Positions 2,812-21,155 of a stretch of DNA of 32,000 nt are shown here, piece by piece; position 1 is the stretch's first letter, and each line of letters starts with the position of its first letter. The stretch comes from Acaryochloris marina MBIC11017 (GTDB taxonomy: Bacteria > Cyanobacteriota > Cyanobacteriia > Thermosynechococcales > Thermosynechococcaceae), in NCBI RefSeq assembly GCF_000018105.1, contig NC_009926.1:240001-272000 (forward strand). The letters are read 5' to 3'. Under the pieces are notes generated by a model that was given only the letters and a program-made list of their open reading frames with translations, did not search any database and had not been told where the DNA came from. A program made the position numbers and the translations under genes.

Positions 2812-2834
2812 CTTATTCCTTATTCACAACCAAT

Positions 2835-3734: not shown

Positions 3735-3774
3735 ATCATTGATATTAGGTAGGGGCAATAGCCATTCATCCCTA

Positions 3775-5082
3775 CTAGGTGATTTCTTGAAAAGAAGCCC
3801 CGTACTAAATTGGATGAATTAGGATGTCCCACTTGGGTAACTGAGGATGTCTCTCCAATCGTTTCTCAATGCCTTTCATTGCTTGTTTAGTAAGCGAAAT
3901 TCCTGTTTCATAAGTCTTCTGTGTCACAGTTACAACGGGGTGATTCCCCTTCCAAGTCATGGTGCTAGCCCATCCCAACAGGGTATCAACATCGGTTAAT
4001 AAGGTTCCGTTCCAGTGTTGCTCCAAAATCCCCCAACATCGCTCAATGGGGTTGTACTTGCTGTGATAAGGCGGATAGTACAGGAGTTGAATAGCGGTGC
4101 CGATGTGATCGCTAAATGCCACCAGTCGATTGAGGAACTGAGTGCGTACCCCACTATTCTCAGGACCGTTATCCAACTTGATCTGGATGAGCTGCAGGGT
4201 TTGCTGTTCGGTGGGGGCCAGGGTGTTCCACCAATCCTGGAGATTATCGACCATAAAATCGCTCGTTTTGTGAGAATGGCCAAAAATGATGTGTAATGTA
4301 TCGGTATCCTCCTCTAGGATGCCGCAGGGAATATATTTTGGCCCACTACCCATATCGTGATCACAGGCTTTCGTTTGGGTTCGAGTCTTGCCCCGACGAG
4401 AGGACTCCCCTAGTTCAACGGTGGCTTTGCAATCGATGCTCAATCGTTTGACGGTACCGTCATGGTCTTTCAGGTCTTTGTGTTTGAGGTTGGCAAAGAC
4501 GGCATCGGTTTCCGGCAGTTTTTTTGGGGTTTAGCTTTGAGGACACGACGGAGTCGATAGCCTAACCGATTCAAGACGACGGCCATGGTACTCTTTGCCG
4601 GTACAGACTTGGGGGGAAATCCTTGCGCTCTCAAGTGGGTGATAGCGGCAGCCGCTGTTAAGCGGGTATAGGCAGTTGAGCTGGAAAAGGTGGGGTCTTG
4701 TTGGCAATGGGCTTCTGCAAGCTCCCGTAAGGCGGTTGCGACCTCTGGGTGAAGGTCTTCCCAACGTTTCCTGCCACAGAAACCCGACTGAGCACCCACA
4801 CAAATCATGCCTGTTCGCTTCTCACCTAAACCTGTTGCCACCGTATTTCGACCCCAGCCAAAGATAATTTCTGTGAGATTGGGGTTCCCGTCACAGTATT
4901 TGAGGGCGATGTCTGCCTGGAAAGCCCGGCGGCGGGCTCCTGTCATTTTCGAGGAGGCAAATTTCAGATCTTCAAGTTGATTCCAGGTTAATTGGTCACG
5001 CATGCTCAGAGTTAGATTCAATGCATCACTATTACATTCTGTGCTCAGAAGTATGTGAGGTCTTTCCTAGAAATCGCCCTAG
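3775..5082 (-). mobile_element. ISAzo13-like insertion sequence (about 1.3 kb) between the methyltransferase and aminotransferase genes
   Basis: Imperfect terminal inverted repeats: CTAGGTGATTTCTTGAAAAGA at 3775-3795 versus the reverse complement of TCTTTCCTAGAAATCGCCCTAG at 5061-5082. They flank a single transposase reading frame. Confidence 0.7.
3805..5021 (-). pseudogene. ISAzo13-family DDE transposase, split into two frames at a 7-nt homopolymer (frameshifted, or expressed by -1 slippage)
   Basis: ORFs 4470-5021 and 3805-4443 are N- and C-terminal halves of one protein. Recognisable motifs: SIDCKATVELG, CDHDMG, DNGPENSG, YYPPYHSKYNPIERCWGILEQHWNG, LPKWDILIHP. The frames join across the T7 tract at 4519-4525: frame 0 reads KPQKNCRK, the -1 frame reads KPQKKLPETDAVFANLKHKD. 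Confidence 0.8.
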
Positions 5083-5090
5083 ATATCCAG

Positions 5091-5132
5091 AAAGTACGTT
5101 TCGCAAAGAAAAAAGTACGTTTTACGAAGAAA
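5091..5132 (+). repeat. Tandem 2 x 21-bp direct repeat (site A)
   Basis: AAAGTACGTTTCGCAAAGAAA followed by AAAGTACGTTTTACGAAGAAA. The same motif family occurs at 11807-11848. Confidence 0.9.
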
Positions 5133-5171
5133 AGCTAGGCTACATCCTCCTATGATAGTCTCAGATTTACT

Positions 5172-5186
5172 TGAGAATAATTCTCG
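5172..5186. promoter_or_regulatory. Fur-box-like 7-1-7 palindrome upstream of the aminotransferase operon
   Basis: TGAGAATAATTCTCG; the core GAGAAT-A-ATTCTC is a perfect palindrome. Compare the 7-1-7 Fur consensus TGATAATnATTATCA. It lies 21 nt upstream of the ATG at 5207. Confidence 0.45.
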
Positions 5187-5206
5187 ATTGCTATTAGGGT
5201 GATGTC

Positions 5207-6682
5207 ATGACCCAGTCTCTTTTAGACTCCCAATCTAATCCTCAGCAAAGTCCTCAATTGGATCCTCAGCGTGCCTATTTGGACAGGTTCATTGTGCGTT
5301 ACACCCAACGAACTCAAACCTCCAAGGCGATTGCCCAATTCTCTCGTTCCGTCCTGGCCGATCCGAGGCAATCGGAATGGTTTAGTCCAACCACCAAAGA
5401 GCTGTGCTACCTGGTTGTGGGCGAGCGATCGCAGGGATCGCGGGTCTGGGATGTCAACGGGAACGAGTACATTGACCTAATTATGGGGTTTGGAGCCAAC
5501 CTGCTGGGTCACAATCCACCATTGATTAAAGAGGCATTGCAGGCACAACTGGAAAAAGGCATCCAGCTCGGCCCCCAGGCCGAATATGCGGGTGAGGTGG
5601 CGGCCTTGATTAGTGAGCTGACAGGTTTAGAGCGGGTCGCGTTTAGCAATACGGGTACGGAAGCGGTGATGACCGCGGTGCGGCTGGCGCGAGCGGCAAC
5701 GCAGCGGACTAAAATTGCCGTCTTTACCAATTCCTATCACGGTCACGCCGATGGGGTCTTGGTAGAGCCTGGATTTCCCCTGCCCAGCATTCTACAGCGA
5801 TTGCTGGGGGGGCTCGTCTCCCGCTTAAATGCCCGCGCTGTGCCAATGGCTCCAGGCATTCCCAAGGTGATCGCTAAAAATGTTTTAGTTCTAGACTACG
5901 GCAATCCGGAATCGCTCCAAGTGATTAAAGCTCATCGCCATCAGCTAGCCGCCGTCTTGGTGGAGCCTGTTCAGAGTCAGCAGCCCGACTTACAGCCTAA
6001 AGCGTTTCTGCATGACTTGCGGTCAATCACCCAGGATTCCGGCATTGCGCTGATCTTTGACGAAATGGTGACGGGATTTCGCCTCCACTTAGGAGGAGCA
6101 CAGGCATGGTTTGGCGTTGAAGCTGACATCGCTACCTATGGCAAGGTGGTAGGTGGTGGCCTCCCCATCGGCGTGATTGGGGGTAAAGCCGCTTATCTCG
6201 ACAAGATTGACGGCGGTCAGTGGGCCTATGGCGATGACTCCTACCCCTCAGTAGAGAAGACCTTTTTTGCCGGTACCCACTGCAAGCACCCCTTATCAAT
6301 GGCAGCGGCACGGGCTTTACTCCACCATCTCAAGCAGCAAGGGCCGACCCTGCAAGAGCAATTGAATCAGCGCACCGCTTGTTTTGTGGAACAGTTCAAT
6401 GCTTTTTTAGCCGTCAATTCTTTGCCTATACAAATGGCTCATTTTGGCTCTTTCTTTAGTCCCGTTTTTCGTCAAGATGCCAGTCCATGTACAATTTCCG
6501 CGCTGATGCCGGGGTTCGAACTGTTGCGCTACCACCTGCTTGATCGGGGCATTTTGCTGCGCGGTGAAGGTGGCGGCTTTCTATCAACTGCCCATACAGA
6601 TGACGACATCAATGCTATCACTCAGGCGATGAAAGATAGCATCGCTGAGCTACAGTCAGCAGGCTTTTTTCCGACCTCATGA
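5207..6682 (+). CDS. Class-III (glutamate-1-semialdehyde aminomutase-like) PLP-dependent aminotransferase
   Basis: GSRVWDVNGNEYIDLIMGFGANLLGHNPP, AFSNTGTEAVMTAVRLARA, IFDEMVTGFR, and YGKVVGGGLPIGVIGG (PLP lysine region). This resembles AMT domains and stand-alone transaminases of NRPS/PKS clusters. Confidence 0.88.
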   Translation: MTQSLLDSQSNPQQSPQLDPQRAYLDRFIVRYTQRTQTSKAIAQFSRSVLADPRQSEWFSPTTKELCYLVVGERSQGSRVWDVNGNEYIDLIMGFGANLLGHNPPLIKEALQAQLEKGIQLGPQAEYAGEVAALISELTGLERVAFSNTGTEAVMTAVRLARAATQRTKIAVFTNSYHGHADGVLVEPGFPLPSILQRLLGGLVSRLNARAVPMAPGIPKVIAKNVLVLDYGNPESLQVIKAHRHQLAAVLVEPVQSQQPDLQPKAFLHDLRSITQDSGIALIFDEMVTGFRLHLGGAQAWFGVEADIATYGKVVGGGLPIGVIGGKAAYLDKIDGGQWAYGDDSYPSVEKTFFAGTHCKHPLSMAAARALLHHLKQQGPTLQEQLNQRTACFVEQFNAFLAVNSLPIQMAHFGSFFSPVFRQDASPCTISALMPGFELLRYHLLDRGILLRGEGGGFLSTAHTDDDINAITQAMKDSIAELQSAGFFPTS

Positions 6683-7143
6683 CGTTCCCTGCTTTGCCTC
6701 CCAGGCTCTATTTAGTCGTTCCCTGGGATTTACCGATTCAACACCCACTAGATGATGTTTATAAAGACAAACTGGAGCGATCGCTTAAACAGTTCTTGAT
6801 TGCCCTAGATCAAGATTCTGATCAAGTGGCTCAAGCAATTATCAATCGGGAACTTTCTCGTCTTGATCTCAGCTCTGTCTCCCCCATTGCATTAACCTCA
6901 ACTCAAACTGCTCTTAAGCCCTGCGAAGTCGAAGATTTTGATGCTTACTTTGAAGTCAACCACGTACAAACTAACGAACCTGCTACCTGTATGATTTGGA
7001 GTCTGCTAGTTTCCTACCAAGCATTTTTAACACTATGTCAGCAAAAACATGACTTTTATCTGGAGCATATCACCCAGCAAAAACAGGGATTTAGGAGCTA
7101 TACAAACTTACTATCTAGAGTTTTTGATCTCAATTTGGAGTGA
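6679..7143 (+). CDS. Hypothetical protein (154 aa), translationally coupled to the aminotransferase (ATGA overlap)
   Basis: ORF only; no motif recognised. The start overlaps the upstream stop (ATGA at 6679-6682) and the stop overlaps the next start (GTGA at 7140-7143). Confidence 0.55.
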   Translation: MTFPALPPRLYLVVPWDLPIQHPLDDVYKDKLERSLKQFLIALDQDSDQVAQAIINRELSRLDLSSVSPIALTSTQTALKPCEVEDFDAYFEVNHVQTNEPATCMIWSLLVSYQAFLTLCQQKHDFYLEHITQQKQGFRSYTNLLSRVFDLNLE

Positions 7144-7742
7144 ATAATAATTCAATTCCCATGATCACGAATGCTACTATCACGAATGCTGATCCCCAGC
7201 AAATATGGAAAAAATGCCATTGGCTATTCTTCATCAACATTCAGGGACTAATTCTTTCCCTGCGTCGCTTTGAGCGAAGTCTGGCTGCAAACAACTTATC
7301 CCAAGCCCGTGTAGAGTTGGAAACGGCGACTGATCTGATGCTGGCCTCTGGCTCAGCAATGGAATTGGCAGGGTGCCTTAGTCACCAAGAGTATGAGCAC
7401 CAAGTTCGGCCAACAATGGCTCCACCTCATGTCACGACCCCTGACTTTAGTGGTCTGATGTCGTGGGAACATGCCGCCCTTATCGAGATTTGGAAGAAGC
7501 TGCGCCCAACCTTTGCAAACCTACCTGACTCTTTTTCAGCTCAGCATCAGCAGTTTGTTTCCGCCTATTTCAGCTTATCCAATGCCCACAGAGCAGTTTG
7601 CCAAAAGTTTGGTGGAGATCAGATGGGCAGTTTACGCTGTGATCATATAACCGCCGTTCAGGTCTTGGACAAATTTACGAAAAATCGCTGGAAGTTAATT
7701 GACCCCAAGCGCAAAACCGCTCCAGGTTGCCCATTTCGCTAG
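7140..7742 (+). CDS. Hypothetical protein (200 aa); weak by-eye resemblance to heme-dependent aromatic oxygenases (TDO/SfmD-like)
   Basis: ORF in operon context; alternative ATG start at 7161. RPTMAPPHVTTPDFSGLMSWEHAALIEIWKKL loosely recalls the TDO segment TMTPxDFxxFRxxLxxASGFQSxQFRxxE. An HxxxC string (HRAVC) lies near the C-terminus. Confidence 0.5.
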   Translation: MNNNSIPMITNATITNADPQQIWKKCHWLFFINIQGLILSLRRFERSLAANNLSQARVELETATDLMLASGSAMELAGCLSHQEYEHQVRPTMAPPHVTTPDFSGLMSWEHAALIEIWKKLRPTFANLPDSFSAQHQQFVSAYFSLSNAHRAVCQKFGGDQMGSLRCDHITAVQVLDKFTKNRWKLIDPKRKTAPGCPFR

Positions 7743-7760
7743 GTAAGGGGAGTTTGCTAC

Positions 7761-8024
7761 ATGAAAGATGTGGGTTTGATGAACACGCTAATCGCAATCC
7801 TGACTGATTTGGGAGTTCCTAAAGATTGTCTGCATTCTGAAGCACGATTACATAAGGATCTGCAACTGGATTCGACTGAAATCGTTGAAATTTCTTTGGC
7901 GCTCAAGCGCCGATTAGATGTGCGAGTCAAGCTAGAAGGTCGGCAAGATATGACTTTGGCTCAGGTCTGTGATCGGATCGAAGTGGCTCAGCTTACTAAT
8001 TCAAATTCAGCTCATGGTTCTTGA
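7761..8024 (+). CDS. Stand-alone acyl/aryl carrier protein
   Basis: 87 aa with phosphopantetheine-attachment motif LQLDSTEIVEISLAL. AAGGGGA ribosome-binding site about 10 nt upstream. Confidence 0.85.
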   Translation: MKDVGLMNTLIAILTDLGVPKDCLHSEARLHKDLQLDSTEIVEISLALKRRLDVRVKLEGRQDMTLAQVCDRIEVAQLTNSNSAHGS

Positions 8025-8478
8025 CGTGCAGGGAAAATTGGAGTGCTTAGCACGGAATGTTGATGTTCAGTATGGAGACATCAAAGGTGTGGGTATAGAT
8101 ATTGTGTCAGTTGCCCAAATTGCAAACTTAGTTGAGCAATTTGACTGCCAATCTTTGGCTCTGCTTTTCACTCCAAATGAGTTGGATTGGTGCCAATCGG
8201 CAGGGATTGAAAAAGAAGAGCGAAACCGCGCTTTCGCTCTCTGTTTTGCCACCAAAGAAGCTGTTTCCAAAGCGCTCACAACTGGTTTAGTTGGCATCGA
8301 ATGGACTGACATTGAAGCTTACTTTGAAGCCGATAAAATTCATAACCCGATCACCGTGATGCTATCTGGTGCAGCTAGGGTCCACGCTCGGAATCATCAT
8401 ATCCAGTGCTGGCAGGTGAACTGGTGGGAATGGGATGGGCACGTCATGGTTCATGTCTTGAGTTTCCTAAGGGAATAA
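8014..8478 (+). CDS. AcpS-type 4'-phosphopantetheinyl transferase (canonical catalytic motifs)
   Basis: GVGIDIVSV (Mg-ligand Asp) and FATKEAVSKAL (Mg-ligand Glu). The ORF track opens at 7969; the ATG at 8014 or GTG at 8026 is the more likely start because the earlier one overlaps the carrier gene by 56 nt. Confidence 0.8.
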   Translation: MVLDVQGKLECLARNVDVQYGDIKGVGIDIVSVAQIANLVEQFDCQSLALLFTPNELDWCQSAGIEKEERNRAFALCFATKEAVSKALTTGLVGIEWTDIEAYFEADKIHNPITVMLSGAARVHARNHHIQCWQVNWWEWDGHVMVHVLSFLRE

Positions 8479-8488
8479 GGAAAATCAT

Positions 8489-10030
8489 ATGGGATGCATT
8501 TCTGCACAATTACCGGATATTTTTAATGTGGCGGCCTATTTCCTCGATGGCGAGGTCGCCCAGGAAAATAGTGAGCGAATTGCCCTGTTTTATCAAGAAG
8601 AAACCTACACCTACGGCCAGCTCCAGCAGTGGGTACAGCGGGCAGCGAGATCGCTGCTTATGGCGGGTATTGAACGAGAAAACCGGATTGCTCTGCTCCT
8701 GCCGGATTCCCCTGAACTCGTGTTTGCCTTTTGGGGAGCCATCTGGATGGGGGCGGTTCCTGTGCCAATCAATACTGCCTGTAGTGTCGATGAAGTTCGA
8801 TATATCTTACAGGACTCGCGAGCCAAACTGTTGGTGACAACCGAAGACTGGCAGGCTAAGTTATCCCCCATTACATCGCCCTTTTTGCAGCATACGTGGT
8901 TAAACACTGGAGAAACTCCCTTGTTATCCCAATTAGAGCAGTTGCCGGCAACTGCGATCACAGCCGCTACGTCTCGCGATGAACCTGCCTTCTGGCTTTA
9001 TACCTCCGGCAGCACCGGCAAGCCCAAAGGCGTGATTCATCTGCATCAAAGTATGGTGGTCTGTGTAGAACACTATGCCAAAACGACCTTAGGACTCCGC
9101 CGCGACGACATTACCTATTCAGTGGCGAACATTCCCTTTGCTTATGGATTAGGCAACACACTTTATATGCCGCTGGCTGTGGGGGCAGCAACGGTGCTAT
9201 CCGACGCCATCAATGCCTTCGACATCGTGGCCGACATTCAGCGCTACCAACCCACCGTATTCTTCGGCATTCCCAGCGTATACGCCAACCTCCTCGCCAT
9301 CCATGAGATCGAACCGCTTAACCCGGCTGGTTTGCGTCTCTGTGTCTCGGCAGCAGAGCAACTGCCTGAAAGTCTCTGGTATCAATGGCGGGCAACGCAT
9401 AACCAAGAGATTTACGAAGGGATTGGCACCACAGAGTTTTTGCATATCTTCCTTTCCAATCAACCCGGAGCTTGCAAACCAGGGACCTCGGGACGGCCCG
9501 TTGCTGGCTATGATGTGCGGGTGGTGGACGATGAGGGACACTCTTGTGCAGTGGCGGAAATCGGCAACCTAGTGGTCGGAGGAGAGAGCCTGATGGGGGG
9601 CTACTGGAATCATCTGCAAGCAACCCGACAGGCGATTCATGGGAGCACAATGCACACAGGAGATAAATATCAGTGCGATGCCGAGGGCTATTTCAAATTT
9701 ATGGGACGTAAGGACGACCTGTTTAAGGTGAATGGCCAGTGGGTTTCGCCGATGGAAATTGAGGATGTGTTGCACCAGCATCCCCAGGTACTAGAGGTAG
9801 CTGTGTTGCCTGAATCCCAGGCGGAGGAACGGCTTACCCAGGTGATCGCCTACATTACTCTCAAAGCCGGAAACCCTCCATCCCCAGAATTAGAAACCCA
9901 AATCTGTCGGTTTGCTAAACAGCATCTGCCCCATTTTAAGGCGCCTAAAACTGTTCAGTTTGTGGATGCCTTACCGCGCACGCCAACCGGAAAAATTCAT
10001 CGCAAATCGCTGGGTGTTGTGCATTCGTAA
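8489..10030 (+). CDS. Aryl-acid adenylating enzyme of the benzoate/4-hydroxybenzoate-CoA ligase type
   Basis: NVAAYFLD, FWLYTSGSTGKPKGVIHLHQS, GIGTTEFLHIFLSN, GTSGRPVAGY, GDKY...GRKDDLFKVNGQWVSPMEIE, PTGKIHR. Confidence 0.88.
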   Translation: MGCISAQLPDIFNVAAYFLDGEVAQENSERIALFYQEETYTYGQLQQWVQRAARSLLMAGIERENRIALLLPDSPELVFAFWGAIWMGAVPVPINTACSVDEVRYILQDSRAKLLVTTEDWQAKLSPITSPFLQHTWLNTGETPLLSQLEQLPATAITAATSRDEPAFWLYTSGSTGKPKGVIHLHQSMVVCVEHYAKTTLGLRRDDITYSVANIPFAYGLGNTLYMPLAVGAATVLSDAINAFDIVADIQRYQPTVFFGIPSVYANLLAIHEIEPLNPAGLRLCVSAAEQLPESLWYQWRATHNQEIYEGIGTTEFLHIFLSNQPGACKPGTSGRPVAGYDVRVVDDEGHSCAVAEIGNLVVGGESLMGGYWNHLQATRQAIHGSTMHTGDKYQCDAEGYFKFMGRKDDLFKVNGQWVSPMEIEDVLHQHPQVLEVAVLPESQAEERLTQVIAYITLKAGNPPSPELETQICRFAKQHLPHFKAPKTVQFVDALPRTPTGKIHRKSLGVVHS

Positions 10031-10071
10031 CGTCAGCACCTCGAAACATTTAAACCTATTGCAAGGAGATA

Positions 10072-11394
10072 TTGATGGTTACAGAATTGCACCCAACAAT
10101 CACCTATCAGGAAACATTTGTTCCAGGAAAAAGAAGCGAGATCGCAACTCTAAAATCCTGTTTGGATGCAGGACTCTTTTCCAATTACATGCTATACAAG
10201 AAAGATGGCGACGTTCGCATTGCAGGGAATGAACTGGCGACTATATCAGTCAGTCCAGATGTCATTCAGCTCCAGAGTCAGGGGCAGTCGCATACTGAAC
10301 CCGCCACCGATCCTTTTCAGCAAGTTGGCGCATTACTAAAGACATTAGCAATTAAAAATTGGACAGCCTATGGCTATGTTGCTTTCGATATGGCCAGATT
10401 CTATTCCTCCTATTCCAAATCGATACAGCAGCCGCTGCTTCACTTTCTAGTACCAGAAACCGAACTGCAATTTACCCATGCAGGGGTTCATGTTAAGCGG
10501 GTAGGCTTACTCGATCCACTGCTAAAGATTTTGGAAAGCGATCGCTCCCTCGCTGATTACCAGCCAATTCCGCTGGAGCAAGATGCTGCTGATTGCGAGC
10601 CCTATTCCCACAAAATCAAGACTCTAATCGCGGCCATCCAACAGAATGAATTGCACAAAGCCATTATCTCTCGTTCAAAAAAGCTGACTGGTGATTTAGA
10701 TTTAATCGGCACCTATGCTGTGGGAGTAAAGAACAATAATTCGGCTCGTTCCTATTGCTTTAAGCTGGCAGATGTAGGTGCTGTAGGCTTTAGCCCTGAG
10801 ATTTTGATGGAGGTCAATCAGGCGGGAATGCTAGTGACCAATCCCCTGGCTGCTACTCGCCCTCGTGGAAAAGATCATGAGGCAGATCAGCAGTTAGAGA
10901 ACGAGCTATTTACTGATGCAAAAGAGGTCAAAGAACATGCGCTTTCTATTTGGCTTGCTCAAAGTGAATTAGACTCTGTCTGCATACCTCAGACGGTGAA
11001 AGTGTTTAACTTTATGGAAGTCAAAAAGTATCGGTGTGTACAGCACTTGTCCTCGCGAGTAGGCGGACAACTGCAAACAGGTAAAACGCTTTGGGATGCC
11101 TTGAAAGTTATATTTCCGGGGGTCACTGTGACGGGCATTAATAAATCTCAGGCACTCGATTGGATCGACCAGCTAGAGAGTGAGCCACGCGGTATTTATG
11201 CAGGTGGTATTGGTTGGGTGGACAGCAAGGGAATGGCGGATTTAGCGATAGCAATTCGCTCGGTCTATCAGTATTGCAACACCATCTGCCTTAACGCTGG
11301 AGCCGGAATCGTGGCTGAATCCAATACGCAAAACGAGTATGTGGAATCAGTCAACAAAATGAACACAATGCTGACCAGTTTAGTCTTGAAATGA
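10072..11394 (+). CDS. Salicylate synthase-like chorismate-utilising enzyme (Irp9/MbtI type)
   Basis: KAIISR, GFSPEILM, NPLAATRPRG, KEVKEHALSI, VQHLSS, IFPGVTVTGINK, PRGIYAGGIGW, AIAIRSVYQ, GAGIVAES. At 440 aa it matches Irp9/MbtI in length. AAGGAGA RBS at 10063-10069; TTG at 10072 or ATG at 10075. Confidence 0.8.
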   Translation: MMVTELHPTITYQETFVPGKRSEIATLKSCLDAGLFSNYMLYKKDGDVRIAGNELATISVSPDVIQLQSQGQSHTEPATDPFQQVGALLKTLAIKNWTAYGYVAFDMARFYSSYSKSIQQPLLHFLVPETELQFTHAGVHVKRVGLLDPLLKILESDRSLADYQPIPLEQDAADCEPYSHKIKTLIAAIQQNELHKAIISRSKKLTGDLDLIGTYAVGVKNNNSARSYCFKLADVGAVGFSPEILMEVNQAGMLVTNPLAATRPRGKDHEADQQLENELFTDAKEVKEHALSIWLAQSELDSVCIPQTVKVFNFMEVKKYRCVQHLSSRVGGQLQTGKTLWDALKVIFPGVTVTGINKSQALDWIDQLESEPRGIYAGGIGWVDSKGMADLAIAIRSVYQYCNTICLNAGAGIVAESNTQNEYVESVNKMNTMLTSLVLK

Positions 11395-11403
11395 CTGACT
11401 GAA

Positions 11404-11844
11404 ATGAACCAGCCAACTCATCAGCATGAAGCTCCCTATCGACAGGGCTTACATATTGTCAAAACTGCTTGGATTGAAGCTTGCTTAGCTCAATCAGGTG
11501 AGCAGTTTGAACAGCAGTACTTTTCCATCGCAGAACGGCATCGGACCCAGATCCGAGCGCCCTATGCTCAATATCTGGCGGGCCGTTTTGCTGCCAAAGC
11601 CACAATCCTACAAATTCTCCACATTCAACTTGAGACCTTTGATCGATGGCACGACATTGAGATTAAAAATTGGCCTCATGGTGAACCCTTTGTGACGCTT
11701 GATGGCTACTGTCAAAAATTGGCCGCCGATCTTCACCTTAACAACTGGCTACTGAGCATCAGCCATATATCAACCTATGCAGCAGCCAGTGTGATCGCAC
11801 GGCTAAAAAGTCCGTTTCACAAAGAAAAAAGTCCGTTTCGCTAA
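11404..11844 (+). CDS. AcpS-like protein with substituted catalytic residues (probable pseudo-PPTase or neofunctionalised paralogue)
   Basis: Clear AcpS scaffold: YLAGRFAAK, DIEIKN..HGEPFV, LLSISHISTYAAASVIA. However, GxD is GLH, KEA is KAT and GKP is GEP. The last 12 codons are encoded by a 2 x 21-bp DNA repeat. Confidence 0.7.
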   Translation: MNQPTHQHEAPYRQGLHIVKTAWIEACLAQSGEQFEQQYFSIAERHRTQIRAPYAQYLAGRFAAKATILQILHIQLETFDRWHDIEIKNWPHGEPFVTLDGYCQKLAADLHLNNWLLSISHISTYAAASVIARLKSPFHKEKSPFR

Positions 11845-11848
11845 GAAA
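11807..11848 (+). repeat. Tandem 2 x 21-bp direct repeat (site B)
   Basis: AAAGTCCGTTTCACAAAGAAA followed by AAAGTCCGTTTCGCTAAGAAA. It spans the stop codon of the AcpS-like ORF, 24 nt before the next ORF. Confidence 0.9.
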
Positions 11849-11871
11849 TTGGCAGAGTGTAATGATTACAC

Positions 11872-12999
11872 TTGATAGATCGCTTTGATAAATCTTTCGC
11901 CTATAGTCTCCCTGTGAATTTCATCCGCCCTCAACTCTTTAATGACTGTCAAATTTGTTCAGTCATTTCTAAATCCAATGGTGAAGATCCTATTGGGAGT
12001 GCTCATCCCTGTGATATCTGGATAATGGTCGAGATTTCATTGCCTTGGACAGAAGAACGGTTGATGACGGAACCGATTCTAAGACAACTTTACCAGTTGT
12101 TTCATGACTACTACGATGCCGATGAACAACCATTTCAGATGATGCCAATGGTTATTGCGCCTGACCATAACTATTCTGTTCCCGAGTACACGCGTGTCTT
12201 GCTTTTCCAGCGCCCAGCTCCATTCTTTGCCCAGTTCAACAAACAGGAATTCCTCCTTCCTTTTGAGCAGCTTCCCCATTTGATGCAAACCGCTCTCACC
12301 CAGCCCAGCAATCTCAAAACTTTTGACTGCTATAAACAGCCGACTTCGTTGACCCGCGATCTCTTTGTTTGTACCCACGGAAATGTCGATGTGGCCTGCG
12401 CCCGCTTTGGTACTCCAGTCTATTTTGAACTTCGAAAATATTGTGGGAAAACCGAAGGCGATGGAAAATTTTCTCTAAAATCCAAAATCCAAAATCCAAA
12501 ATCTTTCTACTCCCCACCTTCCTCTAACTCCTCCACCCTCCGTGTCTGGCGCTGTTCTCATTTTGGTGGCCATCAGTTTGCGCCAACCCTGGTGGACTTG
12601 CCTACTGGCCAAGTCTGGGGACATCTGGAGATGGAGATGCTCGACACGCTAATACAGCGGCATCGTCCCGTTACGGAATTGCGGCGATTTTATCGGGGCT
12701 GGTCAGGTCTGCCTCAGTATGCCCAAATTTTGGAACGTGAAGTCTGGATGCAGCAGGGATGGGACTGGCTGGCTTACAACAAATTGGGGCACATCATGGC
12801 TCAAGATACTGATCATGAAAAATGGGACGCGGACTGGGCCGACGTGCGCCTAGAGTTTGCCTCGCCGGATGGTCTCGTTAAAGGAGCGTATGAGGCAAGG
12901 GTGGAAGTGACTGGTTCAGTATTGACAGTCTGGAATTCCGGTGAGAAGCCGGAAGCGGTGAAGCAGTACAGCATCAACCAGTTAATCTGTGTTGCGTAG
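11872..12999 (+). CDS. Sucrase/ferredoxin-like (thioredoxin-like [2Fe-2S]-type) family protein
   Basis: LFVCTHGNVDVACARFG and RCSHFGGHQFAPT motifs are typical of the Suc_Fer-like family. TTG start as given by the ORF track; start uncertain. Confidence 0.7.
   Translation: MIDRFDKSFAYSLPVNFIRPQLFNDCQICSVISKSNGEDPIGSAHPCDIWIMVEISLPWTEERLMTEPILRQLYQLFHDYYDADEQPFQMMPMVIAPDHNYSVPEYTRVLLFQRPAPFFAQFNKQEFLLPFEQLPHLMQTALTQPSNLKTFDCYKQPTSLTRDLFVCTHGNVDVACARFGTPVYFELRKYCGKTEGDGKFSLKSKIQNPKSFYSPPSSNSSTLRVWRCSHFGGHQFAPTLVDLPTGQVWGHLEMEMLDTLIQRHRPVTELRRFYRGWSGLPQYAQILEREVWMQQGWDWLAYNKLGHIMAQDTDHEKWDADWADVRLEFASPDGLVKGAYEARVEVTGSVLTVWNSGEKPEAVKQYSINQLICVA
12477..12503 (+). repeat. Heptanucleotide tandem repeat (AAAATCC) x 3.9 inside the Suc_Fer-like CDS
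   Basis: aaaatcc aaaatcc aaaatcc aaaatc read directly from the sequence; it encodes KSKIQNPKS. Confidence 0.95.
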
Positions 13000-13017
13000 C
13001 AATGGGTTAATTCTAGC

Positions 13018-14367
13018 GTGCGTACTTTCATCTTTCTCTGGCTAGGACAACTGTCTTCTTCGGTTGGCAGCAGCATGACCTATTTTGCGCTCAACCTTTG
13101 GATATGGCAGCAAACTCAGTCGGCAACATCGATTGCTCTCATCTTAGTCTTTTATCAATTGCCTCAAATTGTGATCGCTCCCCTTTCTGGTCTGCTGGCA
13201 GATCGTGTTTCTCGTAAACGCCTGCTGATTTTTAGCGATACGGCATCCGCTTACTGCACCCTTGCCGTGGGCATACTGGCCGCTTTCCAAATTCTGAAGC
13301 TTTGGCATGTCTACCTGATTGCGGCAGCGATTGGCTGCTTTGGGAACATTCAAGCACTCACCTATTCAACTCTGATTCCCCTGATTGTCCACAAACAGCA
13401 TCATACGCGGGCTAGTAGCATGGGAGCCATGGTGGGTTATGGAGCCGATATTTTTTCCCCTGCCCTCGCTGGACTCCTGTATCCACTCATTGGACTCCTA
13501 GGAATTACCTTGATTGACATGAGTACATTTGCGATCGCGATTTTTACCCTAGTGTTAGTGCCAATTCCAGCAATCGAGAAAGTTAACAAACATAACGACG
13601 AACAACGATTGGCTTTCCCAAGTGTTGAGGGAGCAAAACGGAAAATTTGGCGTGAAGTGACGTTTGGGTTTCGCTACATTGCCTCACAACCAAGCTTATT
13701 AACAATGGTTATCACCATTTCCATCTTCGCTTTTCTCCATCAGCTTGGTGAAACGCTCTATCAACCGATGATTTTAGCCCGCACGGGTGGCAACACTCAG
13801 GTCTTAGGCTTGATCGTCGCTGCCTCCGGACTCGGAGGAGTGTTCGGGGCAATTATCTTGAGTATTTGGGGTGGGTTCCGGCGGCGAATATCTGGCATAT
13901 TGGTCGGATTTATTGGAACAGGCGTGAGCAATCTCATTCTGGGACTTGGACATTTCCCTGGACTCTGGGCGGTGGCTCGGTTTGGGTCATCACTCCATAA
14001 TCCACTCGTTATGAGTTCTTACATGGCTGTCTGGTATGCCAAAATTGCCCCAGAACACCAAGGACGTATCTTCGCTGCTGACTATCTGGTGGGAATTGTG
14101 ATTGAATCTACTGCGGGTTTGAGTGCGGGGTTATTAGCTGATCGCTTACTCGAACCTGCCCTGCAGTCTGGTGAATGGATGGCTTTACATTTAGGGGGAT
14201 GGATTGGAACAGGCCCCGGAAGTGGTATGGCATTGTTAATCACGATGAGCGGGATGGGTACGGTACTGATTGGCATTATAGGATTCAAGATTCCACAGTT
14301 GCGAGATGTCGAAACACTCTTAGCCGACCATGACTCTATTGGGGATAAACACACTGCTACTAATTAA
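13018..14367 (+). CDS. MFS transporter, EntS-like (MFS_3) putative metabolite/siderophore exporter
   Basis: N-terminus FIFLWLGQLSSSVGSSMTYFALNLWIW, LADRVSRKRLLIF loop motif, and roughly 12 hydrophobic segments. Last gene of the + strand operon. Confidence 0.85.
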   Translation: MRTFIFLWLGQLSSSVGSSMTYFALNLWIWQQTQSATSIALILVFYQLPQIVIAPLSGLLADRVSRKRLLIFSDTASAYCTLAVGILAAFQILKLWHVYLIAAAIGCFGNIQALTYSTLIPLIVHKQHHTRASSMGAMVGYGADIFSPALAGLLYPLIGLLGITLIDMSTFAIAIFTLVLVPIPAIEKVNKHNDEQRLAFPSVEGAKRKIWREVTFGFRYIASQPSLLTMVITISIFAFLHQLGETLYQPMILARTGGNTQVLGLIVAASGLGGVFGAIILSIWGGFRRRISGILVGFIGTGVSNLILGLGHFPGLWAVARFGSSLHNPLVMSSYMAVWYAKIAPEHQGRIFAADYLVGIVIESTAGLSAGLLADRLLEPALQSGEWMALHLGGWIGTGPGSGMALLITMSGMGTVLIGIIGFKIPQLRDVETLLADHDSIGDKHTATN

Positions 14368-14589
14368 TTCCTGGTATATGGGGTCGCTCTTCATGGATTA
14401 CAGGGATTAACTTGAGAAATATTCTAAAAGAGCTGGAAGTAGCCCTTTCCCCCCCCTGATAGAGGACTTGGTTGGGACGTAATCGTAAGAGTTGGTTAAA
14501 AGGTGTCTCTGACCCCTATTTGAGAAAGTGGGCATAGCTATACTATCTGCCAAAAAGTAAATCGGACCCGCCAGATGGACGCATACTTG

Positions 14590-14610
14590 CTGCTGTTGAG
14601 TAGCAGTTTT
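14590..14610 (+). terminator. Weak hairpin plus T-tract about 230 nt after the MFS gene
   Basis: CTGCT-gttgagt-AGCAG followed by TTTT. The stem is only 5 bp. Confidence 0.25.
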
Positions 14611-15034
14611 CTCTAGTGGAGTCTCAAAACTGGTGATGCGTTCACAGCTAAGGGCAATGCCCAACTCTCTTGGGCTTTAGGAATCCAGGTAATGCTGCTG
14701 TACCCTTACCCAAAGCGACAGTGTACTAACAAGCCGATTTAGACTCTGTTCGAAAACTTGAAAGCATTATATAGAAAGTCTTTCAAACTTCATCTAAGCT
14801 CCAATTCCAGATTTTGAGGATGAAATCTGGAATTAAAATCGCCAATCGAATTTAGTCACCTGCCTGTATGATTTGGTGATATGTGTCAGCACGAGATCCA
14901 GTTAGGAAAAAGGTTATCGAGCGAACCTGGAACAACCTAACCAGCGTGTCTGGCTGGTAAGCGGGCTTGTTGCTCATTCCTACTATTCTCTAACTTATGG
15001 ATCTATTTGGGATAACAATTATTATCCGTTTTGC

Positions 15035-15062
15035 TTGCAAAATTTACTAATGCAAGTACAAT
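15035..15062 (+). promoter_or_regulatory. Candidate sigma70-type promoter of parA-parB
   Basis: TTGCAA (15035-15040), 16-nt spacer, TACAAT (15057-15062). The 22-bp palindrome begins 10 nt downstream. Confidence 0.4.
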
Positions 15063-15071
15063 TGGCTGAGT

Positions 15072-15093
15072 TGAACCACAACGATGTGGTTCA
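15072..15093. promoter_or_regulatory. parS-like palindrome copy 1 (one mismatch), between promoter and parA
   Basis: TGAACCACAACGATGTGGTTCA. Confidence 0.55.
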
Positions 15094-15154
15094 TAAGAAG
15101 ACTTTCAGAACCAGCAATCTAGTTCAGTGACAAAATTAGTTAATTGAGATTCAG

Positions 15155-15982
15155 ATGGCAAAAATACTTGCGTTTTTTAACCACGCAGGAGGGGTGGGTA
15201 AAACTACCTTAGTACAACAGGTTGGTTATCATCTTTCTCAATGCAAGAGAAGAGTAAAGGGTAAACGAAGTAGAAAAAAGGGTGACTACTATCGAATACT
15301 GCTTGTTGATATGGACCCTCAAGCTTCATTAACAACATTTATGGGGATTGAACCCTACGATCAAGAGAAAACTATATATAATGCCATTCTCAAAGACGAA
15401 GAATTACCTATTCTAAATGCTTTGTATGCAGGTCAGGGAATGGAGGATAGCAATGGATTGGATCTGGTGGCATCAAATTTGGGCTTAGCTATAGCTGAGC
15501 AAGAACTAATGACAGCAGTTATGAAAGACTTTAGGCTGAGGGACTCATTAGAACCAATTAAAGAAGAATATGATTTTATATTGATTGACTGCCCGCCAAG
15601 TCTTGGCAACCTAACTTATATCTCTCTTGTAGCTGCTACTCACTTACTTGTACCCATTCAATCTCAGTACAAGGCATTTAAGGGTGTCCAGCCCCTCTTT
15701 GACACTGTTAGATTGGTCTCTGCCCGTCCTAATAAGTCACTCAAAATTGCTGGTTTTATTCCTACGATGTATGACCAAAGAAATTCTCATGATGAAAGAA
15801 CATTAGCTGCAATTCAGCAACAACTAACACCTGTAGCCAAAGTTTTTTCTCCGATTCCAAGAACTACTACATTTGCTGATGCATCCGAAGAAAATCTTCC
15901 ACTTGCATTGTTTGATAACAAGCATCCTGCCTTGGAACCCATCAAAGTACTTGCAGAACAGTTAGAGAGTTTAGCGCTATGA
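15155..15982 (+). CDS. parA: ParA-family partition ATPase (Walker A lacks the signature lysine)
   Basis: FFNHAGGVGKTT Walker A, LLVDMDPQASLT, ILIDCPPSLG. The stop overlaps the parB start (ATGA). Confidence 0.88.
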   Translation: MAKILAFFNHAGGVGKTTLVQQVGYHLSQCKRRVKGKRSRKKGDYYRILLVDMDPQASLTTFMGIEPYDQEKTIYNAILKDEELPILNALYAGQGMEDSNGLDLVASNLGLAIAEQELMTAVMKDFRLRDSLEPIKEEYDFILIDCPPSLGNLTYISLVAATHLLVPIQSQYKAFKGVQPLFDTVRLVSARPNKSLKIAGFIPTMYDQRNSHDERTLAAIQQQLTPVAKVFSPIPRTTTFADASEENLPLALFDNKHPALEPIKVLAEQLESLAL

Positions 15983-17882: not shown

Positions 17883-18701
17883 CTACGCAGCCAAGTTTTC
17901 AATCACCAGACGCTCATTCATGTTGAGGCGGAAACGTCCATAAGGATTGATATGAAGGTAAAACAACGGCGTTAACGCCCTCAAATCTTCTTCCTGCATA
18001 CGATTCATCCACGTGGGTTCAGAAAGTACTTTTTGAATCATTAGAATATTGATGTAAACCAGGCTGATTTGCAGTAGGTGCAGGCAAAGCATGGACAGCT
18101 CTTGCATCGCCGTTTGATTACTGGCAAAGTCACCATTCTTGCCATAGAAGATGAAGTCATTGGCACTATTCCAATTTTCAATCACATTCAAACCTTCATT
18201 GATCTCTTGCCGTAAGGCTTCATCGTGCAAATACTGGCACAGGAAAATGGTCTTGATAGCTCGGCCTAATTCAGCCAAAGCAAGATAGGTGGGGTGCTTA
18301 ATGTTGTTGCGAGTGAACCGACTCAGAATCGCTTCAGGTTCGGCGGTCCCTTGCTTCATTGCGGTGGTGAACTGGATCATTGGCTCATATTGCTCCCGCA
18401 CCAGATCCCAACGCATGGGGCGCTTCACAATCGCCTTGAGATAGACATACTTCTTCTTCTGCCCGGACATCGGTAAATAGAGCTTCTGCTTGTTGATGCC
18501 CTTGAAGCGGGGCATCAGCTGAAAGTTCAGCAAATAGCAAAAGGCAAACCCCACCTCGCTTTGGCCATGGGTATCCACATAGCTTTTATTCACGGACATT
18601 TGCGTACAGTGGCGAAGTACGCCCTTCACCATAAAGGCCACCTCCGAGGAAGAACACTTCTTCAGTTGCGAGTAGATACACACGGATTTTTTCTCGACAT
18701 G
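17883..18701 (-). CDS. tnpA: Tn3-family transposase, exon 2 (272 codons plus stop)
   Basis: Begins HVEKKSVCIYSQLKKCSSSEV and continues with YVDTHGQSEVGFAFCYLLNFQLMPRFKGI (DDE_Tnp_Tn3 C-terminal region). It is in frame with exon 1 once 18702-21155 is removed. Confidence 0.85.
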   Translation of the reverse strand, partial: HVEKKSVCIYSQLKKCSSSEVAFMVKGVLRHCTQMSVNKSYVDTHGQSEVGFAFCYLLNFQLMPRFKGINKQKLYLPMSGQKKKYVYLKAIVKRPMRWDLVREQYEPMIQFTTAMKQGTAEPEAILSRFTRNNIKHPTYLALAELGRAIKTIFLCQYLHDEALRQEINEGLNVIENWNSANDFIFYGKNGDFASNQTAMQELSMLCLHLLQISLVYINILMIQKVLSEPTWMNRMQEEDLRALTPLFYLHINPYGRFRLNMNERLVIENLAA

Positions 18702-21155
18702 GTTAACCTAAGCCGGAGGATCACTCCTCCGACTTGGCTTCAAAACCGTGCGTAAATCTTTCGATTTACACGGCTCCTCAGTGGCTTGGTGCTTGTCATA
18801 CATACCATTTGGCCTGAGAGGACTTCTCCTTGGCCGTTTTAACATAATGACAATGTCTGTGTAGTAGTTGAAGATTCTTGTATACGTCCAATCCTCCCAT
18901 TGATGTAGGGAGAATGTGATCCACTTCAAGTAAATCTTCTTCTCGGAAGAACATGCCGCACTGAGCGCATTTCCCCTTCTGCTTCTTCAAGAGCATAGAT
19001 ACTCTCTTCGGAGCTTCTGGATGCTTCCCAGTCCTTGAACTCCAGTAAACTAGATTGCCATTGTAGGGACTTGCATCCCCCTTGACTTTGACATGGCGGA
19101 TAATTGGAGTCTGTCGATGTTTGAGTAATTTTTCGGTTCTAGATTTAGTTACTCTAGTCGCGAAGACCCATTTATCTCCCCCGACAGTTTGCCAATATTT
19201 ATTCACCACCCATTTCCTGGATTTGCCAGGATGGCGGTGGTTAGCCCATGTTTGAAGCTTTTGATACAGTAAATGGTCTAGACGGGAGAAGGTCTCTTTA
19301 CTAGCCATGGTCGAATAATATCTCGTCCATCCTCTAATCACGGGATTGAGGTGGCGGATTAATGCCGCTTGCGGCGCTGCCTTATGGGCGTTGATGATAC
19401 TAACGAGCCGATTGTAATGTACTTTTTGCTTCTTTCGACTGGGGGTAATGATGGTCTTAAATCCCAGCAATGTCCCGCATAATCTCCCCGATTGATGTTG
19501 ACCGACCGGGAATTGTCTAACTGAGAATCCTAGAAAATCAAATCCAGGGTTTTCAGCTTCATACCTTTTGAGAGTATGGGATATATGCGTTTTGCTAGGT
19601 TTTAGTTCCAACCCCATGTCTTTTAGCCACTCATGAACTAAGCTCTGACATCTTTGAACTACGGATAAATCCTCGTGAAGAATCACGAAGTCATCACAGT
19701 ATCGAATGACATCAGGAGTAGCAATTCTTTTTCGCTTATTCCCGTCGGCAATCTTTCTGATAGGAAAGGCTTGCTTGATTCGATACTCTAGGCCATGGAG
19801 GGCTACATTTGCCAACAAAGGAGAGATAGTCCCCCCTTGAGGTGCTCCTTCAGATGTCTGTAAGAACTGATGACCATCAATTACCCCAGCTTTTAGCCAA
19901 GTTTTTATTTGTCGGCGTAGAGTGGGAAAGGTCTTCAGCTTTTTGAGCAGTGCTTCGTGGTTTATTCGGTCAAAACATTGGGCTATATCAGCGTCCAACA
20001 CATATTTTGCTTTCTGTTTAATGGCTGCAAAAATTTGTTCTATCGCGTCATGACATGAACGGCCTGGTCTTGAACCATAGGAGTTTGGTTCGAAAACCGC
20101 TTCCCATTCAGGTTCCAGGGCTAGTTTGACTAGTGTCATTCTTGCCCTTTCATACAGGGTCGGTATACCCAAAGGACGTTGTTCGTCTTTTCCTGGTTTA
20201 GGAATCCACACCCGTCTGGTGGGAGGGGCCTTTGAGCCGAGTTTAAGTTGACCCACTAGGGGCAGACGAGCTTCTGGGGACAGAGATTTAACTCCATCCA
20301 CACCTGCCGTCTTTTTTCCCTGGTTGTCTTGTGTGACCCGTCTAACTGAAAGGCATTTGGCTGACCAGGACCTCATCAGAGTTTTCTGGAGTCTATGTAC
20401 TACTTTGACATCGCCACGTTGTCTGGCTCTGAATATGCGCTTTTGCAACTTAAACACTTTCCGCTCTAGTTTTGGCCAGGGGATTGCGCTCCATTCCATC
20501 ATCGGTTTGACCCGTGCTTTAGACATATTTATTGCTACTTGTTCCTATTCATTCCAAGTCACCGTGAGTCTGTCTGCTTATCCTCACCATTACAGTGGGG
20601 CTTTTGCTTTTGACCCAATCCTTCCCACCGCCTAACTTCTGGTTAGCACCTACTCTTAGCCAATCGACCTCCAAGAGAGATAGGCGGGGGTTACTTCGTT
20701 CCTAATAGCCATTGATTGAACTGTTAGAGTGATGCGCTCCACCGGGTTTATTGGAAGTGCTAACTGGTCGCTACTGGACACGCCAGCTCCGTATATCCTT
20801 GCCCTTTTGGGACTCCCAGCGTTATCAACCTAATTTCGCTGGTTAATGATTACGGTGGGTTAACCACATCTTCGCTTTCGCTACTCATAAGTTCTTGCTC
20901 GAAGGGGTTCAGAGCTAGGCTCCCTGTTACCTCCTTTTTTCCCCGCTTCAGGCGTTGATGGCTAGTCGCGAACCTGGGGGAAATGCTGTCACCGCTGCAC
21001 CTGCGGGATAGGACTAGAGCGGTCTAGGATACTGACTCTCACCTATATGGCTATTAAGTTGTCAAGGTACAGTTGGGATATTTTCCCCTTCTTTACGCTT
21101 GCGGCTAATCCCCTCAAACCCTATTCAGGTCTAGTTTCTAGCCAACGAATCGCAC
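18702..21155 (-). mobile_element. Group II intron (2454 nt) with intron-encoded protein
   Basis: 5' GTGCG (21155-21151). Domain V GAGCCGTGTAAATCGAAAGATTTACGCACGGTTT (18776-18743). Domain VI hairpin with bulged A (18709) 7 nt before the 3' end ...TTAAC. Candidate EBS1 CCAGTAG (20777-20771) is complementary to the last 7 exon nt, CTACTGG. Confidence 0.9.
18796..20526 (-). CDS. Group II intron reverse transcriptase/maturase with C-terminal HNH endonuclease domain
   Basis: RT blocks (RRVWIPKPGKDEQRPLGIPT, YVLDADIAQCFDRINH, GAPQGGTISPLLANVAL, IRYCDDFVIL). Maturase region RGWTRYY. HNH region CAQCG...EVDHILP...LQLLHRHCH. Confidence 0.93.
   Translation of the reverse strand: MSKARVKPMMEWSAIPWPKLERKVFKLQKRIFRARQRGDVKVVHRLQKTLMRSWSAKCLSVRRVTQDNQGKKTAGVDGVKSLSPEARLPLVGQLKLGSKAPPTRRVWIPKPGKDEQRPLGIPTLYERARMTLVKLALEPEWEAVFEPNSYGSRPGRSCHDAIEQIFAAIKQKAKYVLDADIAQCFDRINHEALLKKLKTFPTLRRQIKTWLKAGVIDGHQFLQTSEGAPQGGTISPLLANVALHGLEYRIKQAFPIRKIADGNKRKRIATPDVIRYCDDFVILHEDLSVVQRCQSLVHEWLKDMGLELKPSKTHISHTLKRYEAENPGFDFLGFSVRQFPVGQHQSGRLCGTLLGFKTIITPSRKKQKVHYNRLVSIINAHKAAPQAALIRHLNPVIRGWTRYYSTMASKETFSRLDHLLYQKLQTWANHRHPGKSRKWVVNKYWQTVGGDKWVFATRVTKSRTEKLLKHRQTPIIRHVKVKGDASPYNGNLVYWSSRTGKHPEAPKRVSMLLKKQKGKCAQCGMFFREEDLLEVDHILPTSMGGLDVYKNLQLLHRHCHYVKTAKEKSSQAKWYV

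Follow-up and report, generated by a model that had tools for sequence, protein, structure and literature searches.

A conserved pair of half-competent AcpS-like proteins in cyanobacterial siderophore clusters may be the two subunits of one phosphopantetheinyl transferase

Introduction

Why would one operon encode two small proteins of the AcpS (holo-acyl carrier protein synthase) family, the second of which has replaced both acidic ligands of the catalytic metal? The question is raised by a 32,000-nucleotide (nt) stretch of the cyanobacterium Acaryochloris marina MBIC11017 (contig NC_009926.1, positions 240,001–272,000; hereafter the window, in which positions are counted unless another locus is named), where an acyl carrier protein (ACP), an aryl ligase and a salicylate synthase are encoded together with two AcpS-like proteins, here called AcpS1 and AcpS2. 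A sequence-only reading of the window had regarded the first as canonical and the second as a catalytically dead paralogue that joins or regulates it, or else as an AcpS fold put to a new use.

Phosphopantetheinyl transferases (PPTases) come in three architectures: the AcpS trimer, the Sfp pseudodimer and a domain integrated into the fungal fatty acid synthase. Each active site of the AcpS trimer is built from two adjacent protomers, one of which donates Asp8, Glu58 and Lys62 for Mg2+ and pyrophosphate binding and catalysis, together with the basic helix alpha-1 that docks ACP; the Arg53 region, the GxP loop and the SxS(H/D) motif of the other hold the 3',5'-ADP part of coenzyme A (CoA). In Vibrio cholerae AcpS with bound CoA, chain J gives Asp8, Glu57 and Lys61, chain K gives Lys51, His80, Leu83, Pro86, Ile110, Ser111 and Asp112, and Arg14 of helix alpha-1 docks Asp35 and Asp38 of ACP (PMC3447402). 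After these chains we call the Asp/Glu/Lys-donating set of residues the J face and the CoA-nucleotide set the K face; Bacillus subtilis AcpS numbering is given first in residue correspondences. Here we describe how the two paralogues have lost opposite faces of this interface site, and argue, with a probability of roughly 60%, that they would function only as a heteromer in which a single active site is assembled from both, comparable to the Sfp pseudodimer but not fused.

Results

AcpS2 has the AcpS fold and an altered metal site

AcpS2 is homologous to AcpS, with similarity far above chance level. It gave full-length matches to the NCBIfam AcpS models (NF011254, E = 1.2e-16); its score against the PPTase domain model TIGR00556 (49.2 bits) lies above the curated cutoff of 45.35, and that against Pfam PF01648 (24.2 bits) slightly below the 25-bit cutoff. 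The best phmmer match in the Protein Data Bank, V. cholerae AcpS (3qmn, E = 7.8e-11, gapless across residues 15–132), is also the top Foldseek match (E = 3e-11, target-normalised template modelling (TM) score 0.85, root-mean-square deviation 2.2 Å) of the AlphaFold2 monomer model, which has a predicted local distance difference test (pLDDT) score of 88.1. These matches uphold the AcpS scaffold recognised in the sequence-only reading, and YLAGRFAAK, DIEI and WLLSISH are all present. The protein search returned a single close relative, 61% identical, from a metagenome contig (L001) carrying the same cluster; the nearest relatives are complete stand-alone cyanobacterial AcpS-like proteins, at 40–45% identity.

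Gapless alignments to 3qmn and 5vbx place His17 (nt 11452–11454; GTD to GLH) at Asp8 and Ala66 (nt 11599–11601; AAKEA to AAKAT) at Glu58, and alignments to solved AcpS place GEP at GKP, all as previously read from the letters alone; a third substitution, of the catalytic Lys62 by Gln70 (nt 11611–11613; ..SK to ..LQ), had escaped that reading. Acidic ligands at shifted positions, which might have rescued the metal site, were ruled out, because alignments that are gapless over 118 residues leave no room for a register shift. The K face is retained in full, with Arg61 (=Arg53), Gly93-Glu94-Pro95 (GxP) and Ser118-Ile119-Ser120-His121 (SISH).

The 3' end of the gene (11806–11839) contains a 13-nt direct repeat, AAAAGTCCGTTTC, in two copies 21 nt apart, which encode KSPF twice in the C-terminal tail (residues 134–146); this tail is not found in orthologues and is modelled with low confidence.

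AcpS1 and AcpS2 have lost opposite faces of the active site

AcpS1 matches PF01648 with E = 7.9e-14, covering profile positions 1–97 only, and its AlphaFold2 monomer (pLDDT 86.4) has 3qmn as top fold match (TM 0.90), so that both proteins adopt the ~120-residue alpha/beta AcpS fold according to AlphaFold2 and Foldseek. AcpS1 retains Asp29 (=Asp8), Glu82 (=Glu58) and Lys86 (=Lys62) and reads GIDIV and KEAVSK, whereas Arg53 has become Cys77, GKP has become HNP and SISH has become NWWE. Mg2+ ligands and catalytic lysine thus lie together on the AcpS1 chain and are missing from AcpS2, and the face for the 3',5'-ADP part of CoA is found on AcpS2 and missing from AcpS1.

Scanning prokaryotic genomes, with each species represented once, yielded 27 cyanobacterial loci, against whose open reading frames (ORFs) the window proteins were compared by BLAST. 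The order ACP–AcpS1–benzoate-CoA-ligase-family enzyme–salicylate synthase–AcpS2 was found in 18 of the 27 and in contig L001, and AcpS2 accompanies AcpS1 in this fixed order in 19 of 19 loci with AcpS1. All 20 cassette AcpS1 sequences keep Asp8, Glu58 and Lys62; position 53 is Cys in 19 and Ser in one, no sequence has GxP after the IE motif or S(I/L)(S/T)H (0/20 each), and the SISH region is instead Trp-rich, (T/N)W(W/C)xWD. The same pattern extends to 121 AcpS1 clusters obtained by profile search, with the Asp8/Glu58/Lys62 triad in 121, Arg53 lost in 120 (Cys in 118), Trp103 in 119 and SISH gone in 119. The losses in cassette AcpS2 are the reverse. Arg53, Gly85, Pro87, Ser102, Ile103 and His105 are kept in 21 of 21 sequences, whereas position 8 is Glu in 12, Asp in four, His in two, Gln in two and Lys in one, position 58 is Lys in 11, Glu in four, Gln in three and Ala, Ser or Thr in one each, and position 62 is Lys in 14, the remainder having other residues. 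The full triad is present in 2 of 21 cassette AcpS2 sequences versus 61 of 61 controls; in the window it reads His/Ala/Gln and in the sister copy of L001 Lys/Ser/Gln. Both faces are intact in all controls, namely 53 of 53 ordinary AcpS from other phyla and 8 of 8 stand-alone cyanobacterial AcpS-like genes. Naive Fisher tests of the pair against controls, which ignore shared ancestry, gave p ~1e-16 to 1e-19. Position 14 is Arg or Lys in 111 of the 121 AcpS1 clusters, and most AcpS2 sequences have a net acidic helix alpha-1. Two co-encoded paralogues have therefore undergone reciprocal loss from the opposite faces of an interface active site.

These patterns revise the sequence-only reading in two respects. 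The first gene is canonical in its GIDIV and KEA motifs, but Arg53, GxP and SISH are lost in 20 of 20 paired orthologues. A heteromer remains the best supported outcome, but the picture of a dead regulator gives way to mutual dependence between two half-competent proteins, because AcpS1 has itself lost the complementary half-site (20/20; Arg53 in 120/121, SISH in 119/121). Random decay in the orthologues, which would have pointed to a pseudogene, was not seen, and the invariance of the CoA-nucleotide face in 21 of 21 cassette orthologues supports the view that AcpS2 is under purifying selection rather than decaying.

In an unbootstrapped neighbour-joining tree, a clade of complete stand-alone proteins falls among the cassette AcpS2 sequences, and window and L001 AcpS2, whose J face is the most degenerate, share a long branch; the topology is too unreliable for ordering these events. 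Complete stand-alone AcpS-like genes occur in filamentous cyanobacteria outside biosynthetic clusters (L084, 8001–8381; L085, 8001–8408), with further examples in L012, L017, L018, L020, L022, L023, L024 and L027. In L084 and L085 the gene adjoins one and the same divergent module, made up of MazG_C, HMUDK_hel, a ~260-residue unknown protein, Peptidase_M78, an XRE-type helix-turn-helix protein and a 95-residue protein, and integrases and XisH/XisI lie near the L085 gene; this neighbourhood looks like a mobile or defence-type island.

Natural fusions combine the two types of half

A full HMMER search with the AcpS1 profile over 1.84 billion representatives, evaluated with hidden Markov models (HMMs) of both families and a common alignment, returned several proteins of 251–315 amino acids with two matched stretches. 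Five of them (P0216, P0226, P0254, P0238 and P0262; 251–289 amino acids) carry the AcpS1-type half first. Their N-terminal halves score 84–99 bits against the AcpS1 HMM and have Asp/Glu/Lys but neither GxP nor SxSH. In their AcpS2-type C-terminal halves, Asp8 is replaced in four of five and Glu58 in all five, Arg53 and Pro87 are present in all five, and SLSH, SLTH or SLAH is found in four, with SLTR in P0262. The reverse order, which is that of Sfp, was seen in P0228, P0295 and P0308, whose C-terminal half has the WxxKEA motif. Judged by their residues, the catalytic-half-first fusions would amount to a permuted pseudodimer, reversed with respect to Sfp. Such single-chain proteins lend 'Rosetta stone' support to the pairing of AcpS1 with AcpS2. 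No fusion was found among the 120 best AcpS1 relatives.

Two of these fusions lie in type II polyketide synthase (PKS) clusters, P0254 (L087, 8001–8828) next to ketosynthase/chain length factor and cyclase genes and P0226 (L088, 6664–7425) next to cyclase genes and an ACP gene. In the best 149 representatives at 50% identity, at least 94 are stand-alone proteins of the AcpS1 type with the J face only. On this ground AcpS1- and AcpS2-type proteins might be a widespread further PPTase architecture, found as separate proteins in siderophore cassettes and as single chains in type II PKS clusters, a generalisation that we put forward tentatively and with less conviction than the heteromer itself.

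Another type II PKS cluster (L091) contains one of these stand-alone AcpS1-type genes (8001–8366) and, 5 kb downstream, a second AcpS-like ORF (13471–13863) that is partly degenerate, with Asn8 and Ser62, GKP and SIS kept, and that Pfam does not detect.

A putative two-subunit PPTase

In the arrangement that we propose, AcpS1 and AcpS2 would be two subunits of one dedicated PPTase, which would turn the apo form of the cassette carrier protein into the holo form for salicylate loading. AcpS1 would give the Asp/Glu/Lys face and the ACP-docking helix, and AcpS2 the CoA-nucleotide face. Since neither protein has the full residue set, a homotrimer of either should have no complete site, and, judging by the residue patterns, three complete sites are not to be expected in an AcpS1 or AcpS2 homotrimer. 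The complex that we infer, in its physical association, stoichiometry and activity, would be a heterodimer or a mixed trimer with a complete site only at the AcpS1:AcpS2 interface. In human PPT, the substitutions D129A and E181A lower kcat ~1000-fold (PMC2148441), so AcpS2 alone should be inactive; AcpS1 has no residues to hold the adenine, ribose and 3'-phosphate moieties of CoA and alone would be expected to bind it weakly. The possibility that the pair transfers salicyl-phosphopantetheine directly from salicyl-CoA was also considered and set aside, as each carrier would then be loaded only once. A literature search found no heteromeric or pseudoenzyme AcpS-type PPTase and, in the literature searched, no description of a two-gene complementary PPTase architecture; absence there is not proof of absence.

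The pair belongs to a conserved siderophore cassette

The coordinates of the five cassette genes and their surroundings are collected in Table 1.

Table 1. Features of the salicylate cassette and its surroundings in the window
Feature	Position	Strand	Description
Carrier protein (ACP)	7761–8024	+	Stand-alone aryl/acyl carrier protein, 87 aa
AcpS1	8014–8478	+	154 aa; AcpS fold with metal/catalytic face only (J-type)
Aryl ligase	8489–10030	+	Benzoate-CoA-ligase-family adenylating enzyme; TIGR02262 474 bits, above 375 cutoff
Salicylate synthase	10072–11394	+	Chorismate-binding enzyme; TIGR03494 314 bits, E 1.4e-93; Pfam Chorismate_bind 2.7e-70
AcpS2	11404–11844	+	146 aa, ATG start; AcpS fold with CoA-nucleotide face only (K-type)
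Cassette surroundings	13–7742 and 11872–14367		A-T-reductase, methyltransferase, class-III aminotransferase, 154-aa unknown, SfmD-like haem peroxidase; also thioredoxin-like, MFS

AcpS1 and AcpS2 are separate ORFs 2.9 kb apart, and the short distance previously noted between AcpS2 and the salicylate synthase holds, with 9 nt between the TGA of the latter and the AcpS2 start. Both lie in a run of same-strand genes (5207–14367) whose spacings, from −11 to +41 nt, argue for an operon; promoter and terminator scans of 4800–15200 gave no more sites than in shuffles. The last 11 nt of the ACP gene are also the first 11 nt of AcpS1. The ACP gave weak but consistent matches to NCBIfam ACP models and has a predicted phosphopantetheine-acceptor Ser38 within LQLDSTE (nt 7872–7874); it is 53–72% identical to the same-position cassette ACPs in 19 loci, where DLQLDS(T/V/A)E is almost invariant. 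The aryl ligase, 62–79% identical to its same-position counterparts in 19 loci and corresponding to the published FatD and LusI, is presumed to activate and load salicylate. The TIGR03494 score of the salicylate synthase is slightly below the cutoff of 325, and the gene is conserved across the cassette.

Genera with the cassette include Microcoleus, Symploca, Halotia, Nostoc, Chroococcidiopsis, Waterburya, Stenomitos and Aliterella. In typical loci, AcpS2 is followed by a KASIII–ACP fusion gene and then by Cy-A-T nonribosomal peptide synthetase (NRPS) and PKS genes, and siderophore ABC-transport genes lie at the flanks. The window has neither KASIII–ACP nor the usual NRPS genes after AcpS2. 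Its A-T-reductase is truncated at the N-terminus by the window edge, and downstream of the cassette lie a thioredoxin-like (Suc_Fer-like) protein and an MFS exporter. In kind, these neighbours match the genes that the Anabaena cylindrica anachelin cluster is proposed to use for its Dmaq unit and for export.

The published fatuamide table lists the same series, with FatB as ACP, FatC as 'PPTase superfamily' (459 nt), FatD as ligase, FatE as salicylate synthase and FatF as 'holo-ACP synthase' (486 nt). The lusichelin table gives LusJ as a 152-residue PPTase and LusO as a 126-residue hypothetical protein after the chorismate-binding enzyme, and these two are probably the counterparts of AcpS1 and AcpS2. 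In the main text of the fatuamide, lusichelin and leptochelin papers, we found no role for either small PPTase-like gene. The five-gene cassette is thus typical of cyanobacterial salicylate-capped siderophore clusters and not peculiar to the operon of the window.

Compared with their L001 copies, AcpS1 and AcpS2 are 57–61% identical and the other cluster genes 64–81%, and the pair appears to evolve faster than the neighbouring genes in the window/L001 lineage. The L001 copy of the cluster is decaying: an IS66-family element has inserted into its salicylate synthase gene, and its MFS gene is in three fragments (6529–9997 and 11584–12911). TonB and ExbB/ExbD genes follow the cluster.

Mobile elements also occur in the window. 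An ISAzo13-type DDE transposase on the minus strand (3805–5021) is divided into two ORFs, C-terminal (3805–4443) and N-terminal (4470–5021), and represents a broken insertion sequence that separates the methyltransferase gene of the cluster from its aminotransferase gene. A Tn3-family transposase gene on the minus strand (17883–23285) is split into two parts (21138–23285 and 17883–18683) by a group II intron, which carries an ORF for reverse transcriptase, maturase and HNH (18796–20526); the Rfam group II catalytic intron family (RF00029) is matched at 18702–18778. The ParA/ParB genes adjoining the cluster are 86.5% identical to those on Acaryochloris plasmids.

Discussion

Several observations weigh against the two-subunit enzyme or narrow it. 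AcpS1 of the window lacks the docking residues that are basic in most of its family, with Gln, Asn and Gln at residues 35, 38 and 42 (positions 14, 17 and 21), and L001 AcpS1, its closest relative, retains them. This deficit, the fast evolution of the pair and the decay of the sister cluster suggest that the copy in the window may be impaired or functionally weakened, even if the mechanism holds for the family. A compensating change in the ACP was looked for and rejected, the cognate ACP being near-consensus. In AcpS2, Glu8 and Lys58 occur together in 9 of 21 cassette sequences (for example in L005, L010, L011, L014, L019 and L030), which is not expected under pure drift, so that the J face could retain a residual or different function; these residues may form a salt bridge in place of the former metal site. 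The AcpS1 position that corresponds to His105 varies, yet is His in 67 of 121 clusters, so the nucleotide face is not erased at every position. Finally, the 15-kb contig of a type II PKS locus (L089) has a stand-alone AcpS1-type gene (6748–7155) and no AcpS2-like ORF.

The last two observations, together with the catalytic residues that AcpS1 keeps throughout, the docking arginines of most of its orthologues and the adjacency of AcpS2 to the KASIII–ACP fusion gene in typical cassettes, would suit an AcpS1 that works alone, for instance as a homotrimer with modified CoA binding, and an AcpS2 that is a non-catalytic accessory (a binder of CoA or holo-ACP, a chaperone or regulator of the carrier, or a docking factor for KASIII–ACP or the NRPS). 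We consider this unlikely, since AcpS1 has lost Arg53, GxP and SxS, the elements with which every solved AcpS binds the CoA adenine, ribose and 3'-phosphate, and precisely these are invariant in AcpS2 (21/21); moreover, fusion proteins combine both types in one chain, and the window retains AcpS2 although no KASIII–ACP gene follows it. The same adjacencies, ACP with AcpS1 and AcpS2 with KASIII–ACP, could alternatively point to two independent PPTases, one for each carrier, with non-canonical chemistry in AcpS2 such as Lys58 taking the place of the metal, for which the non-random Glu8/Lys58 combination (9/21; Lys58 in 11/21) might speak. This is very improbable given the ~1000-fold drop in kcat upon replacement of Asp or Glu in a characterised PPTase, the His/Ala/Gln and Lys/Ser/Gln triads of window and sister AcpS2, an acidic helix alpha-1 poorly suited to ACP docking, and, again, the missing KASIII–ACP gene in the window. 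Least probable of all is that AcpS2 is a functionless gene copy on its way to becoming a pseudogene, with an Sfp-type PPTase of the host priming the carrier. The lower identity of the pair to its L001 copies, the visible decay of that sister cluster (IS66 in the salicylate synthase gene, fragmented MFS) and the lost docking arginines of window AcpS1 fit such a course, but the reading frame is unbroken in all 21 cassette copies, which come from many genera, Arg53, GxP and WLLSISH never vary although overall identity is ~40%, the fold of AcpS2 is predicted with confidence, and the substitutions are limited to one face rather than scattered. Recruitment of the AcpS fold for a new function is a possible reading but not needed to account for these data.

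If AcpS1 and AcpS2 do form one enzyme, this conserved half-competent pair would add an unfused two-gene form to the known PPTase architectures and would be a natural system for the partition of an interface active site after duplication, the presumed step from AcpS to Sfp; it would either be a surviving intermediate of the transition from AcpS trimer to Sfp pseudodimer or have replayed that transition independently. The building blocks and the chemistry are known, and the genes already stand in published cluster tables; both small genes are listed without a role in published metallophore clusters that contain the cassette (fatuamide, lusichelin, leptochelin and anachelin-type). Should both be needed to prime the aryl carrier protein, heterologous production would break when either was omitted. 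The pattern also carries a warning for annotation, as many cyanobacterial proteins called 'holo-ACP synthase' are unlikely to be self-sufficient enzymes.

Among known systems, the fatuamide cluster (FatC/FatF) has the same cassette as the window, and the lusichelin (LusJ/LusO), anachelin and leptochelin clusters share the salicylate-starter genes; unlike typical cassettes, that of the window lacks a following KASIII–ACP gene and is embedded in anachelin-like tailoring genes. AcpS-type enzymes (B. subtilis 1F7L, V. cholerae 3QMN) resemble both window proteins in their ~120-residue fold (TM 0.85–0.90 to 3qmn) and in active-site residues drawn from two neighbouring protomers, but the full set is found in neither AcpS1 (no Arg53, GxP or SISH) nor AcpS2 (no Asp8, Glu58 or Lys62), and the window pair belongs to a siderophore cassette rather than being a housekeeping gene.

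The Sfp-type enzymes (Sfp, 1QR0/4MRT; human AASDHPPT) likewise have two AcpS-like modules and a single site. The N-terminal half of Sfp uses GKP and ISH to bind the CoA nucleotide, and the C-terminal half carries Asp107, Glu151 and Lys155 for Mg2+ and catalysis; similarly, in Sfp-type enzymes and human PPT the N-domain binds the 3'-phosphate and alpha-phosphate of CoA and the C-domain carries Asp/Glu/Lys (PMC2148441, PMC4103896). When the halves of Sfp are aligned with AcpS2 and AcpS1, the division of labour between N- and C-terminal half parallels that between AcpS2 and AcpS1. The window modules differ in being separate polypeptides, with the metal-binding module encoded first, and not a single chain of at least ~220 amino acids with two AcpS-like halves. 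Descent of the pair as a 'split Sfp' was rejected, because comparison of both family profiles with Sfp by hhalign was insignificant (E = 0.045 and 0.081), with the C-terminal half of Sfp as the aligned region in both cases. Sfp is therefore an analogue and not the parent; the origin of the pair appears to lie within the AcpS-type clade and the resemblance to Sfp to be convergent or parallel.

A parallel in evolutionary logic is the yeast phosphopantothenoylcysteine decarboxylase formed by Hal3, Vhs3 and Cab3, in which an ancestral homotrimer had its sites at the interfaces, the paralogues have split the His and Cys faces between them, and after duplication a complete site exists only in the mixed oligomer (PMC4626798). 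That enzyme is eukaryotic, unrelated in fold and reaction, and experimentally proven, whereas the AcpS1:AcpS2 complex is predicted from residue patterns; both systems nevertheless divide complementary half-sites between paralogues.

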